DNA of 61,023 nt, taken from contig JAAEPH010000056.1 of the NCBI GenBank assembly GCA_024232855.1, positions 1 through 61,023 on the forward strand, written 5' to 3'. This stretch comes from Gammaproteobacteria bacterium. Lineage in GTDB: Bacteria; Pseudomonadota; Gammaproteobacteria; GCA-001735895. Under the pieces are notes generated by a model. It ran no database searches and was not told the DNA's origin. It saw only the letters and a program-made list of their open reading frames with translations. Positions 38,788 to 61,023 of the stretch are shown one piece after another (the stretch's first letter is position 1; every line of letters begins with the position of its first letter). The translations under genes and the position numbers were made by a program.

Positions 38788-38857
38788 CGCTCGCCTTAAA
38801 AATTTGCTAAATTAGGCGGATTCAGCAATGCCGTCACCAACCCACGGGAATACGCTC

Positions 38858-39760
38858 ATGAATCACTTTGCGCGAGCCGTCGCCTACGTGCTGCTCGCGA
38901 TCCTGTTGTTCGATTTACAGGGAGTCTTCATCAAATTCCTGGGGGCGCGTTACCCGGTACAGCAGCTGGCGGGTTTTCGCAATATTTTCGGCCTGATCCC
39001 AAGCCTGCTGGTGCTGCTGCTGTCGCACGACTGGCACTCCCGCGGGCGCATGTTGAAAATCCGCCAATGGCGCCTCGGTTTACTTCGCGGCCTTTTCATC
39101 GCCGTCGCACAGTTCTGCTTTTACCTGTCGATAACCAAAATGGCCCTGGCGACGGCTACAACGCTGACCTATATCAGCCCGGTGCTGATAACGATGCTTT
39201 CGATCCCGATCCTCAGGCACAGCGTCGGCCTGTGGCGATGGCTGGCGGTCGTCGTCGGTTTTGTGGGCGTGCTGATAATCATGGCGCCCGGCAGCGAAGT
39301 CTTCACCCCCTACAGCCTGCTTCCCGTCGTCGCGGCCTTCGGATACTCCCTGTCAACCGTTTGCGTTCGACTTTTCGACGGGCACAATCCGACCGCCCTG
39401 ATCAACATGTACGCCTCCGCGGGGGCGCTGCTCGGGTCACTGGCGATACTGTTCGCCACCAGCGGATACCAGACGGTCGAATCGTTACAGGACTGGGGGA
39501 TGCTGCTGTCCACGGGCATGGTTGGCGGATTCGCGGTACTGGCCCTGATCAACGCCTACCGGCTGGCGCGGCCCTCCAGCCTGTCGCCCTTCGAGTACTT
39601 CGGCATACCCTTCGCCTTTATTCTGGGCTGGCTGTTTTTTGACGAGGCGCCCTTCGAGCAATTGATCCCCGGCGTATTCCTGATCGTGGCGGGCGGCATG
39701 TTGATCGCCTGGCGCGAGCGTAAAAAGCACATCGAAACCACACCCGCCCACACCGAATAA
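38858..39760 (+). CDS. DMT/EamA-family transporter
   Basis: About ten hydrophobic segments in two repeats; SLSPFEY motif; start at 38858 or 38828. Confidence 0.9.
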   Translation: MNHFARAVAYVLLAILLFDLQGVFIKFLGARYPVQQLAGFRNIFGLIPSLLVLLLSHDWHSRGRMLKIRQWRLGLLRGLFIAVAQFCFYLSITKMALATATTLTYISPVLITMLSIPILRHSVGLWRWLAVVVGFVGVLIIMAPGSEVFTPYSLLPVVAAFGYSLSTVCVRLFDGHNPTALINMYASAGALLGSLAILFATSGYQTVESLQDWGMLLSTGMVGGFAVLALINAYRLARPSSLSPFEYFGIPFAFILGWLFFDEAPFEQLIPGVFLIVAGGMLIAWRERKKHIETTPAHTE

Positions 39761-39771
39761 CGTCAATCCAA

Positions 39772-39947
39772 TTGTCACAGCAGGTAGTTAAAAGAGGTTC
39801 TCGGTAGAGTAGGGGCCAGGCGAAACCTGGCCCCTACTCTACCGAGAACCTGTCCGGGAAGCATCCGCGCCTCTGCGCCTCCGCGAGAACCTTCCTGGTA
39901 AATGTCCGCGCCTCCGCGAGAACCTGCCCGGGAGCATCCGCGGTCTA
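39772..39947. mobile_element. Degenerate MITE/REP composite with group II intron DVI palindrome (core 39804-39842) and tandem CGAGAACC units
   Basis: 57-bp palindrome at 39795-39851; flanks resemble both ends of the element at 41589-41836. Confidence 0.8.
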
Positions 39948-41570
39948 ACGCTGCTGCATGCGCCCGCGCAGCTGGGATTCACAGAACTCGATCGAAGTCA
40001 GCATCTGCTGGGCGTCGGCGAATCGCATATAGGCCTTTTTCTGCAGCGCCTTGTTGATCACCTCGACAAGTCCCGGCGGCAGCGTCAGGTGTTTCAGGTC
40101 AGGCTCGTGGTTGACGATATTCTTCTTCAGCTCGGGCAGGTTGTCACCGGCAAAGGGCTGGTGACCGGTGAGTAAATGGCAAAGTGTCACCGCCAGCGAA
40201 AACAGATCGGAACGCCCATCCAGTTTTCTGCCCTCGAGTTGTTCCGGTGACATGTAAGCCGGCGTTCCGACAATCATCTTATCGCTCTGCTGCTGTCGAT
40301 AATCGCTATAGGCGGCGCCGAAGTCGGTCAGGATATAGGTATCACGCCTGCTATCGTACATGATATTGGCGGGCTTTGTGTCACCGTGAATGACGTCATG
40401 ACTGTGCGTCACGGCTAGCGCGCGCAACATATCCTTCGATACCCGAATACACTCCTCAACCGTCAGGTACTCGCGTCTGCGTAAGCGCGACGACATCGAG
40501 TAACCGGAGATATAGTCCATCGCGATGTAAGCGTTATCGCCAAGCATTTCAGCGTCGTGAATCTTGACGATATTGCGGTGTTCCAGCTGGGATACGATCA
40601 CCGCCTCGTGCAGCCAGTGCCTGGCGCGGTCGCGTTCCAGCTTTTCCTCCTTGTGTACGCGCATCACCTTGAGGGCGACGCGATTGTGTGAGCGCTGATC
40701 GGTTGCCTCGTACATGACCGATGTAGAACCCTTGGCGATTTTGCGCAGCAGGCGATAGTTGCCGATCATCGGCAACTCGGGTTCGGCGATCGGCAGCGAT
40801 TTACCCAGCTTGAGCAGAATCGTCCGGTTCCTGTGAATCTCCTCGATGCGAGCGACGAAATCACCGAGCCCCGGATCGTATTTCGACAGCCAGTGATAGA
40901 GGTTGAGGGCACTTGCCCAGTGCTTACCCGATTCCAGCAACATACCCAGCTCGTAACCGACCTCCAGCATGTCGTCACTGTAGGGACATTGCTTGAGCAT
41001 GGTCAGGGCAGTTCGATAATCTTCGCTTTCGATACGCGCCCGCACATCTGCCAGGCTGACGGCATTGCGTTCGACCAGAATTGACATCGCCATGCCCTGG
41101 TAGAGGTCGATCATCCAGTAAAAAATGGAAACCAGCAGCATGACCAGTGCCGGAAACATGACCGGCAGGAAGCGCTGAAAAAATACCGCGAGCATGACTT
41201 CCAGCATTAGCAGGCCGAACAGAATCAGGATCACTGTGAGAATCGAAATCACGTTGGTGCGGGAACGGGTGTAGCAACGCACGTAAACCGCCAGCACCAG
41301 TCCGTAAACCAGCAGCAGAATCCACTGCGGTGCATGCTGGATCGACTGGATCGCGACCAGCTCGCGATCCGCCGGCTGCAATGCGACGATGTGGAGAAAC
41401 AGATCGTACTCGAAGTTCGACACCGTCGAGGTCAGGCTCAGCAGGAAGGTGAAGCCCCACAGAATTGAGGTCAGTCCCAGTTGCCAGGCTCTGGATTTGA
41501 AACTAAACAAGGCGTGTCGGTCAGGTTGATTCGGGAATGAGATCATGCGATAGATCGGCAATCGACGCAA
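39945..41570 (-). CDS. Membrane-anchored Hanks-type Ser/Thr protein kinase
   Basis: VALK, HRNIV, HGDTKPAN, DFG, GTPAYMSPE, DGRSD; four N-terminal TM segments; start TTG 41570 or ATG 41546. Confidence 0.93.
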   Translation of the reverse strand: MRRLPIYRMISFPNQPDRHALFSFKSRAWQLGLTSILWGFTFLLSLTSTVSNFEYDLFLHIVALQPADRELVAIQSIQHAPQWILLLVYGLVLAVYVRCYTRSRTNVISILTVILILFGLLMLEVMLAVFFQRFLPVMFPALVMLLVSIFYWMIDLYQGMAMSILVERNAVSLADVRARIESEDYRTALTMLKQCPYSDDMLEVGYELGMLLESGKHWASALNLYHWLSKYDPGLGDFVARIEEIHRNRTILLKLGKSLPIAEPELPMIGNYRLLRKIAKGSTSVMYEATDQRSHNRVALKVMRVHKEEKLERDRARHWLHEAVIVSQLEHRNIVKIHDAEMLGDNAYIAMDYISGYSMSSRLRRREYLTVEECIRVSKDMLRALAVTHSHDVIHGDTKPANIMYDSRRDTYILTDFGAAYSDYRQQQSDKMIVGTPAYMSPEQLEGRKLDGRSDLFSLAVTLCHLLTGHQPFAGDNLPELKKNIVNHEPDLKHLTLPPGLVEVINKALQKKAYMRFADAQQMLTSIEFCESQLRGRMQQR

Positions 41571-41588
41571 ATCCTGCCTGTATGCGGG

Positions 41589-41836
41589 CTAACCCGCACA
41601 TCTCACCGATTTCCTGCTGCGGACGCTTCCTTGGAGGGGTTCTCGCAGAGGCGCGGAGAGCGCAGGGCGCGCGGAGGGTATTTTGCAGGGTGTGTGCCTG
41701 GGCATCTCTGACGCAGACTTCGATAACTTCTTTATCCCCCGCCCCCCCGGCGCTCACTGCGCTCTCCGCGTCTCTGCGAGAACCTTTACTGAAGTAGTCC
41801 CGCGTCGTGGACCTGCTGGTGACAAATGCGGGCTAG
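41589..41836. mobile_element. MITE (family A-type ends) carrying an intact inverted REP pair; empty intron target
   Basis: CTAA-CCCGCACATCTCACC...GGTGACAAATGCGGG-CTAG; 28-bp inverted arms at 41638-41665 and 41757-41784 (one mismatch). Confidence 0.8.
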
Positions 41837-42527: not shown

Positions 42528-42628
42528 GGTTCTCAGCTAAGGTTCTCGGTAGAGTAGGGGCCAGGTTTCGCCTGGCCCCTACTCTACCGCCTCTGCGAGA
42601 ACATTACCGGGGAAGCATCCGCGGGCTA
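42528..42628. mobile_element. Degenerate MITE/REP composite with second DVI palindrome (core 42549-42587)
   Basis: GGTTCTCG|GTAGAGTAGGGGCCAGG-TTTCG-CCTGGCCCCTACTCTAC|CGCCTCTGCGAGAAC. Confidence 0.8.
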
Positions 42629-60835: not shown

Positions 60836-60891
60836 CCCCGCATTTCTCACCACCGGATCGACGGCGCGGGACTACTCAATAAAGGTTCTCG
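60832..60891. mobile_element. End of a MITE/REP composite forming the intron 3' exon
   Basis: Reverse complement closely matches 41777-41836; starts at the CTAG containing the nucleotidase stop. Confidence 0.8.
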
Positions 60892-61023
60892 GTAGAGTAG
60901 GGGCCAGGCGAAACCTGGCCCCCCTCGTCAAACGCAGCATGCGGCTTTCCCGCACTACGCTTTCCTGCTGCCTTCACAATAGAGCTATCGCAAGGGAATT
61001 TAGCAGTCAGAGCTGCAACAAGC
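60892..61023 (-). mobile_element. Group II intron 3' end (domains V and VI); remainder outside the window
   Basis: DV AAGCGTAGTGCGGGAAAGCCGCATGCTGCGTTT has the AGC triad, GAAA loop and 2-nt bulge. DVI GAGGGGGGCCAGG-TTTCG-CCTGGCCCCT-A-CTC has the bulged A and ends in AC. Confidence 0.92.

Follow-up and report, generated by a model that had tools for sequence, protein, structure and literature searches.

The window analysed here, a stretch of 61,023 nt that makes up the whole contig JAAEPH010000056.1 (C56 in the contig numbering used below) of the gammaproteobacterial assembly GCA_024232855.1, carries at positions 39795-39851 a perfect palindrome, hereafter P1, composed of two head-to-head copies of the 3' end of a group II intron. 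We regard P1 as the dead-end scar of a single copy of a probably endonuclease-less, hairpin-targeting group II intron, left when the strand complementary to the intron folded back on itself, and assign this reading a probability of roughly 55%. The homing site of the intron, ...GCGYCTCTG|CGAGAACCT, is located in the 3' arm of a repeat that forms a hairpin, 9 nt away from the stem base. The complementary strand would begin in the 3' exon, either as cDNA synthesized by the intron reverse transcriptase (RT) during homing or as the host lagging strand after insertion, and would copy the last 17 nt of the intron, the 5-nt loop of domain VI and, in the 5' arm of that domain, another ~9 nt. At this point its 3' end (CCTGGCCCC) would be complementary to its own fresh product (GGGGCCAGG), so that it could snap back and copy itself outward through CTCTAC into the exon. 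The folded strand would then re-pair with the template upstream, in this case at the outer 9 nt of the opposite repeat arm and elsewhere through microhomologies of 0-7 nt, whereby the intron body and the repeat interior would be lost and a perfect, bulge-free domain VI would be left between the outer ends of the repeat. The copying enzyme might be an RT or a host (lagging-strand) polymerase, the sequence being compatible with either.

The two arms of P1 (39795-39820 and 39826-39851) comprise 26 nt each, are 100% complementary and enclose a 5-nt loop (39821-39825) which reads CGAAA on the plus strand; a perfect inverted repeat of this length is far beyond chance in 61 kb. The intron-derived core of 39 nt (39804-39842) is identical among all five palindromes of this kind in the genome. 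Its right part, 39826-39842, corresponds to the final 17 nt of the intron in plus sense and is identical to the last 17 nt of the group II intron end located at 60892-60964 on the minus strand, whereas 39804-39820 is the reverse complement of the same 17 nt. The loop is the antisense of the domain VI loop of the intron, TTTCG, and is thus in sense for the minus-strand (left) half of the palindrome. Both arms extend into CGAGAACCT, a 9-nt sequence that likewise comes after the intron 3' end (60883-60891): the outer 9 nt of the right repeat arm (39843-39851, plus strand) are this 3' exon, and those of the left arm (39795-39803, AGGTTCTCG) represent the same exon on the minus strand. Read from the left, P1 matches a real intron end over 40 nt, made up of the exon (9 nt), the 17-mer, the loop (5 nt) and part of the other domain VI arm (9 nt), beyond which it does not continue into the intron but turns into the complement of itself. 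The identities of arms, loop and exon bear out the original prediction, which described P1 from the sequence alone as two head-to-head intron 3' ends with an antisense loop and a common 3' exon. In total, 31 nt of P1 match the intron, and the branch-point A, bulged in domain VI, is paired in the palindrome. Stable folds were obtained for RNA of either strand (-57.2 or -57.6 kcal/mol; z ~ -11; none of 200 shuffles as good), compared to -26.6 kcal/mol for the native domain VI region with its bulged A. P1 (39795-39851) has no match in Rfam and contains neither the domain V nor the catalytic core of a splicing-capable group II intron.

The 17-mer from the intron end occurs 18 times in the genome, namely, ten times in five palindromes (C56:39795, which is P1; C56:42540, hereafter P2; C61:5148; C64:5047; and C312:1470), once in each of seven intron 3' ends that are preceded by domain V (C6, C32, C40, C49, C56:60892, C536 and C515, the last being an 87-nt fragment) and once in a mini-intron. 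P1 is not a one-off: it has four companions with the same core in this genome, and analogues exist in other phyla. The cores are identical, whereas the flanks of the five palindromes differ as much as those of unrelated repeat copies; the loop reads CGAAA on the plus strand in two palindromes and TTTCG in three; in two of the five, one 9-mer carries a C/T difference; and one palindrome, P2, has a different junction. These features indicate separate events rather than the copying of one locus. P2 (42540-42605; core 42549-42587, loop TTTCG, perfect arms 42547-42589) is located 2.7 kb from P1, with the opposite loop orientation. Its left junction is the canonical site (AGGTTCTCG), but the right one lies 8 nt further in, with CGCCTCTGCGAGAAC following the intron end. 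The search for the 39-mer that had been proposed in the genome and its relatives hence succeeded in the former, with five copies; in the latter, we found none, allowing up to 3 mismatches, in 60 other genomes (36 from the same genus and 24 from the same class). The exact palindrome also had no match in a collection of species-representative genomes, from which the genome of the window might itself be omitted.

The repeat that serves as the target is a long hairpin, AGGTTCTCGCAGAGGCGC ... GCGCCTCTGCGAGAACCT, with conserved outer flanks. Intron 5' junctions are available in three contigs and read GCGYCTCTG|GTGTG, which defines the homing site as ...GCGYCTCTG|CGAGAACCT. A CAGAG motif in domain I of the intron is complementary to the CTCTG of the 5' exon, and CTCTG is present in all four known 5' exons, suggesting that sites with CTCCG may be poorer targets. 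Given that the repeat arms are inverted, each repeat offers one homing site per strand, set back 9 nt from the stem base. As a case in point, the intact, uninvaded repeat copy at 41584-41836 (inner hairpin unit 41639-41783) retains empty homing sites at 41776|41777 on the plus strand and 41646|41645 on the minus strand; its outer ends are also inverted (CCCGCACATCTCACC ... GGTGACAAATGCGGG) and abut CTAA/CTAG. The 18-nt target is found in 79 exact copies in this genome, compared to one or two copies in three of 60 genus relatives, and 41 strict inverted doublets of the repeat, 117-210 nt in length, were identified. It is the targeted repeat, a high-copy extragenic palindromic unit arranged in inverted doublets, and not the scar, that corresponds in this respect to repetitive extragenic palindromic (REP) sequences and to REP doublets forming hairpins (REPINs). 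The earlier notion of 'REP arms' was accordingly right in substance, the target being a hairpin-forming repeat with a homing site in each inverted arm. Each of the palindromes consists of the two outer 9-mers of the repeat around the 39-nt core, the repeat interior having been lost, and a search of the genome recovered no collapsed repeats that are devoid of the intron core. The accompanying claim that the event removes the homing site is correct for the two sites of the affected repeat, but not beyond it: two intact copies of the 18-nt target, of the CTCCG variant, adjoin P1 on the right (39875-39892 and 39908-39925; 24 and 57 nt away), and 72 CTCTG-type and 65 CTCCG-type sites are empty genome-wide.

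The parent intron is represented in the window by the 3' end of one copy (domains V-VI; 60892-61023, minus strand), which runs off the end of the contig; its 3' exon CGAGAACCT (60883-60891, minus strand) is followed by the outer flank of the repeat. The segment 60892-60964 (minus strand) matches the Rfam family RF00029 with 40.1 bits, just above the gathering score of 40, as expected for group II domains V-VI, and seven such ends in the genome score 40.1-40.6 bits. We could not identify a complete copy of the parent intron in this assembly, and the match to RF02003 (D1-D4) is weak (27.8 bits versus a gathering score of 49). In the intron copy at C174:1-395, domain I is joined, just after the region of exon-binding site 1 (EBS1), directly to RT domain 2, the rest of the 5' half of the ribozyme and the start of the open reading frame (ORF) being missing through an internal deletion. 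The first ~250 nt of the intron align with its closest full-length relative, an intron in a Terriglobia chromosome (L148), which is inserted on the 3' side of a comparable hairpin, at its base (...GCGTCTCTG|GTGCG). The description of the intron as endonuclease-less rests on the protein of this relative, which has 450 aa and displays only the RVT_1 and GIIM domains (E<=0.01), the intron-encoded protein of the present genome not being assembled; a 45-aa RT fragment from the latter is 67% identical to the L148 protein. Insertion into the 3' arm of a repeat hairpin, in this genome as well as in L148, together with the orientation bias described below, is the pattern of a IIC-like, hairpin-targeting intron. 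The last 132 nt of the intron have no counterpart in 60 genus genomes. The only GIIM-bearing ORF in the assembly (C15:16134-16976), which is open at the 5' side and internally deleted, belongs to another, damaged intron, and for the two other group II intron families of the genome (weaker RF00029 matches; C15, C186, C93, C265 and C59) we found no palindromic derivatives.

Introns with the same domain VI base (GAGGGG...CCCCTACTCTAC) are widespread, with at least 115 stretches; the 80 loci that were read come from many phyla and are often inserted at CGYCTCTG|CGGTGAAA. The landing pad likewise recurs across phyla, introns of Acidobacteriota, Gemmatimonadota, Planctomycetota and others being located in repeats of similar CTCYGCG / CTTCCGCG units, for instance, at ...GCGTCTTCCG|CGGATTCCGGTGTGA and CGYCTCTG|CGGTGAAA (L060-L089 from a Gemmatimonadaceae MAG, that is, a metagenome-assembled genome; L126-L205; L148:5349-5420). 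In Gammaproteobacteria, Gemmatimonadota and Acidobacteriota, the homing site of this intron class is carried by hairpin repeats of CTCYGCG-like units, which might travel with, or be shaped by, the intron.

The original prediction had put forward two mechanisms, namely, recombination between two introns and folding back of the cDNA after copying of domain VI. Both fit the junction; we favour the latter and place the former second on account of intron orientation, site occupancy, the odds of double hits and the flanks of palindromes in other bacteria. In all eight intron 3' ends (C6, C32, C40, C49, C56, C515, C536 and C194), the sense strand of the intron is the G-rich strand of the contig, and the same holds for the three contigs with 5' junctions, which are possibly the other sides of the same copies. 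Endonuclease-less introns are described, in the part of the source cited here, as homing with a bias to the lagging-strand template (PMC4615759), and the orientation of all eight ends is as predicted for this mode of homing. As for occupancy, both informative 5'-junction contigs (C174 and C295) show one intron per repeat, the opposite site being empty despite constituting a perfect target in C174. Furthermore, when 16-18 insertions are distributed randomly over 40-80 two-site repeats, orientation being ignored, five or more double hits arise with P = 0.0001-0.012, the mean expectation being 0.75-1.9; for five insertions against the orientation bias, all in repeats that also contained a copy following it, an estimate by hand, based on ~13 invaded repeats out of ~70, yields (13/70)^5 ~ 2e-4. 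Taken together, the orientation bias, the empty second sites and these odds make random double hits unlikely and favour the folding back of a strand copied from a single intron. Rejoining through short homologies in other scars of the same intron, at TGT and CAGGTT, supports this mechanism, as does the absence of collapsed repeats devoid of the core. These scars include the mini-intron (C194:3213-3244, minus strand), a 32-nt element with both intron ends intact that lost everything between a CAGGTT in the 5'-terminal hairpin and a CAGGTT in domain VI, and the 87-nt 3' fragment (domains V-VI) at C515:5215-5301, which is fused via TGT to the centre of the repeat, with the loss of ~30 nt of the 5' exon. 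The hairpin at the 5' end of the intron (CAGGTTAAGCCTGG) resembles domain VI.

The strongest competitor, which we nonetheless deem unlikely, holds that two full introns homed in opposite orientations into both arms of one repeat, producing a near-palindrome of ~4 kb, which the host would be unable to maintain and from which slippage deleted the intron bodies together with the repeat interior. Slippage would occur between 9-nt direct repeats contributed by the domain VI stem in the opposed copies (GGGGCCAGG or CCTGGCCCC); in a milder variant, homing would be attempted at both sites simultaneously and short cDNAs would anneal through the domain VI stem. Several observations favour this scenario: there is a valid site in both repeat arms, and RmInt2 uses both inverted repeats of ISRm17 according to the portions of the two reports cited (PMC4615759, PMC5894124). 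Depending on which of the two possible pairs is used, slippage would yield either loop orientation, and palindromes of both kinds are observed. In addition, the two or three 5' junctions missing from the assembly could reside in short contigs that were dropped. Nevertheless, it calls for five insertions against the bias seen in all eight extant 3' ends, each beside a copy that follows the bias and none surviving on its own, in addition to double hits which, as calculated above, are improbable if random and to second sites which are empty in both informative invaded repeats. It also leaves unexplained the palindromes of other bacteria, in which the second flank either lacks the target signature or differs at position +1.

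Several observations weigh against the folding back of a single-intron copy. The loop is in sense for the favoured intron orientation in four of the five palindromes, which speaks for folding back but does not differ significantly from 50:50. A double template switch, first at the arm 9-mer and then at the domain VI 9-mer, which would yield antisense loops, was considered and rejected, as it would place four of the five primary introns in the disfavoured orientation. GC skew is a coarse indicator when contigs are short, amounting to only -0.011 in C32, and C295 is only 1.2 kb long; moreover, the bias could reflect the direction of transcription rather than of replication. Only three 5'-junction contigs are available against at least five full-looking 3' ends, and a doubly invaded repeat would give rise to a contig shorter than 500 nt, which would be dropped from the assembly, so that such intermediates may have been missed. 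No intermediate of the event was found in the contigs, and palindromes are missing from a MAG in which a related intron has at least 17 copies, suggesting that the pathway is rare unless the target lies within an inverted repeat. The most awkward case is P2, in which the loop marks the disfavoured orientation and both junctions coincide exactly with homing-type sites, one being canonical and the other corresponding to the upstream site CTCTG|CGCCTCTG, which is also used in C40 and C194. To account for P2, folding back requires rejoining through CG alone despite 7-15 nt of homology at hand, whereas two introns explain it more simply. P2 could well have arisen from two introns, a single event of this kind being compatible with chance.

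To find similar hairpins in other bacteria, the 12-nt base of domain VI was sought as inverted pairs in the species collection. Seven stretches were recovered, from a Gemmatimonadaceae MAG, two Chamaesiphon MAGs, two Verrucomicrobia, one cyanobacterium and one member of the Chlamydiales, that is, seven palindrome loci in the whole collection versus five in the present genome alone. All share the 12-bp base, whereas each has a complementary upper stem of its own. For two of the seven, a matching intron could be identified. The Gemmatimonadaceae MAG carries a perfect palindrome with 21-nt arms, in which the loop (ACAAC) and the upper stem are those of an intron found at a contig end of the same MAG; the right flank is the normal 3' exon of the repeat, the left one has no more than CGT in common with it, and ~85 nt away, on the opposite strand, the canonical site is unoccupied. 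The palindrome of a Verrucomicrobiales MAG (L095) matches domain VI of an intron from a Rubritalea MAG (L172) base for base. The genome of L095 (G091) contains a second, slightly imperfect copy of the palindrome as well as a domain V with half of a domain VI that has a similar 5' arm and a loop beginning with GTAA, as in that second copy. Complementarity of the flanks past the intron end extends over 0, 0, 2, 3, 4, 4 and 7 nt in the seven loci, two of which differ between flanks already at position +1, compared to 9 nt in four of the five palindromes of the present genome and 2 nt in P2. Imperfect versions with two arm mismatches were encountered in a Chromatiaceae MAG and three metagenome contigs. 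A scan of metagenomes with the 17-mer returned 15 stretches, ten of which have nothing to do with the palindrome, being coincidental or located in coding sequences. For seven foreign loci, no match to Rfam reached the gathering score. The 12-mer GTAGAGTAGGGG was further encountered in apparent tRNA genes (L105 and L111), at the junction of the D-arm and the anticodon stem, which we judge to be a chance overlap.

The original prediction had tied the intron origin of the palindrome to its absence from genomes devoid of the intron. The exact 39-mer was found neither in the 60 relatives nor in the species-representative collection, but hairpins designed alike, in which the 12-bp base is shared and the upper stems covary, are present in five MAGs in which no intron with a matching 3' end was found; two of the five are long-read assemblies, and the missing parent is weak evidence, given that MAGs often lose multicopy elements. 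These cases provide an argument for viewing the hairpin as independent of the intron, whether as a REP-like element or as a small palindrome with mobility of its own, which would spread or be kept for a function such as termination and only resemble domain VI. The location of the foreign hairpins just downstream of genes, the terminator-like tail that adjoins the P1 stem on the minus strand only (AACCTCTTTT), downstream of a kinase gene, and the presence of Y1 transposases in the genome point in the same direction. We nevertheless find this explanation very improbable. Identity to the local intron reaches the loop and the upper stem both in the present genome (G000) and in genome G085, as it does between L095 and the L172 intron; there are merely one to five copies per genome; and the identical cores of the present genome are embedded in flanks that have diverged like those of unrelated repeats. 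Furthermore, P2 lacks a terminator-like tail, and terminator-like sites in the region are not in excess (2 observed versus 2.8 expected from shuffles). Finally, of the four Y1_Tnp (PF01797) matches, candidates for a RAYT transposase of the kind that REPs flank, at C28:32065-32388 and in C185, C252 and C410, only the one in C28 has the repeat within 2.5 kb, ~350 nt to one side.

The window is one contig of a short-read, MAG-like assembly of 550 contigs that is broken by every intron copy. Neighbouring contigs share overlaps of 141 nt and all contigs that enter the intron end 132 nt inside it (141 nt including the shared 9-nt exon), from which we infer an assembly k of 141. A separate assembly is provided by the Logan k=31 contigs of run X1, which is probably the source sample and thus not independent data, and of which the contigs rather than the raw reads were used. 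It includes a unitig of 47 nt that is identical to 39805-39851 and extends across the loop, both arms and the right-hand 9-mer. Contigs of 2405 and 1833 nt, with depths of 38.7 and 37.1, represent the flanks and both reach 39822, although no single Logan piece of this run spans the whole of P1; in the Logan contigs of runs X2-X4, from related strains at low depth, no piece bridges P1. The depth of the P1 unitig, 70.9, is about twice that of the flanks, whereas five copies would predict a fivefold value. Even so, the collapse of one or two full introns into a hairpin by the assembler is barely conceivable: by our reasoning, the junction (loop, CCTGGCCCC, TACTC) occurs in no real intron in either orientation, so that no k-mer path would lead to it; five loci are each continuous with unique flanks on both sides; the k=31 unitig crosses the junction; and the same design is seen in long-read MAGs from other phyla. 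As far as contigs can show, P1 is real, although some cells might carry a full intron at this locus.

We found no description of palindromised domain VI remnants in the full-text literature, subscription journals and supplements being outside reach. Intron remnants as such are known, as are snap-back synthesis and microhomology joining by intron-type RTs in vitro; a recurrent, sequence-defined genomic product that links both is apparently new. Fragmented group II introns have been described, in the part of the report cited (PMC5894124). Like such truncated copies, which result from abortive retrohoming or slow degradation, P1 is a non-functional 3'-end remnant at a bona fide homing site; unlike those covered in that part of the report, it has been turned into a perfect hairpin by an inverted duplication, whose position in domain VI does not vary, and has lost the 5' exon side. 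The G2L4 RT performs snap-back DNA synthesis, and both G2L4 and a group II intron RT carry out microhomology-mediated end joining, as stated in the cited portion of the source (PMC11761039). There, the 3' end of a DNA strand pairs with a short complementary stretch of the same strand and is extended, and ends are joined through microhomologies of at least 2-5 nt, which are the two steps that the fold-back model requires. The activities set out in that portion, which mentions no natural product in a genome, are in vitro and repair activities, whereas the evidence here comes indirectly from genomes, and a polymerase of the host could have the same effect. RmInt2 and ISRm17, as far as the cited part of the report extends (PMC4615759), offer a parallel on the target side, with an endonuclease-less intron, a target in both inverted ends, one site per replication strand and a bias to the lagging-strand template. 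The target in that case is a full insertion sequence (IS), unlike the ~135-nt hairpin repeat considered here, and palindromic remnants are not mentioned in that part.

As in REP/REPIN systems, the targeted repeat lies outside genes as an inverted doublet that folds into a long hairpin, and the scar is a GC-rich extragenic hairpin; unlike in those systems, the scar is present in five copies rather than hundreds, and its sequence is derived from an intron. Nearly precise excision of Tn10 and the deletion of long palindromes involve slippage between short direct repeats and leave a short palindromic remnant. This is the mechanism that the two-intron explanation invokes; it needs two inverted copies, which orientation and occupancy render unlikely for most of the palindromes described here. 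In quasipalindrome template-switch mutagenesis of the Ripley type, an imperfect hairpin is made perfect when the nascent strand copies itself. The conversion of domain VI with its bulged A into a perfect hairpin is similar, but in classical cases the strand returns to the same template position and few bases are affected, whereas here it would return ~135 nt plus the intron length upstream, with a large deletion. A comparison can also be drawn with twin priming of L1 elements.

If folding back is the correct explanation, such scars record failed homing and, being countable in any genome, would provide a gauge of how often retrohoming is aborted; they would further show how the structure of the target, an inverted repeat, affects the outcome of homing. 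A stable extragenic hairpin would then arise de novo from a retroelement and outlive it, which bears on the origins of REP-like sequences. Were the snap-back performed by an RT, a retroelement route would seed REP-like or terminator-like palindromes across bacterial phyla. More tentatively, and with the odds against it, these hairpins might be the first traces in nature of snap-back by a group II intron RT, with abortive homing into hairpin repeats regularly converting domain VI into perfect, stable hairpins that remain once the intron has disappeared. For genome annotation, hairpins of this kind mark former intron sites and should not be taken for REPs or terminators.

P1 is situated between convergent genes, in agreement with the original prediction, namely, those for an EamA-family transporter (38828-39760, plus strand) and a Ser/Thr protein kinase (39945-41570, minus strand). 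In nine genus relatives, the orthologous spacer measures 8-60 nt (277 nt in one of them) and contains no repeat, suggesting that the acquisition of the repeat and, subsequently, the intron event are specific to this lineage. The left flank of P1 (39761-39794), which resembles 41786-41836 by eye and is missing from the orthologous spacer of the nine relatives, probably represents a shortened outer flank of the repeat element, judging from its sequence. The right flank (39852-39944, plus strand) consists of the outer flank of the repeat and two more partial arm units. Together with the adjacent 9-mer, it accounts for three direct partial repeats of the arm end and outer flank at 39843-39933 (CGAGAACCT + YCCNGG...CCGCG), which look as if they had been made by slippage between CCGCG motifs. 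P2 lies between the genes for a cobalamin adenosyltransferase (plus strand) and an alpha/beta hydrolase (minus strand). Elsewhere in the assembly, an abundant terminal repeat (CGATTTTTGCGCATATTTATGAATTCTCCGGGCTAGG) is found at a fixed distance of ~100-140 nt from dozens of contig ends (e.g., C6:1-37); it probably marks the terminus of an IS present in many copies, and most of the fragmentation of the assembly is due to it. One copy of this terminal repeat interrupts the intron in C6.

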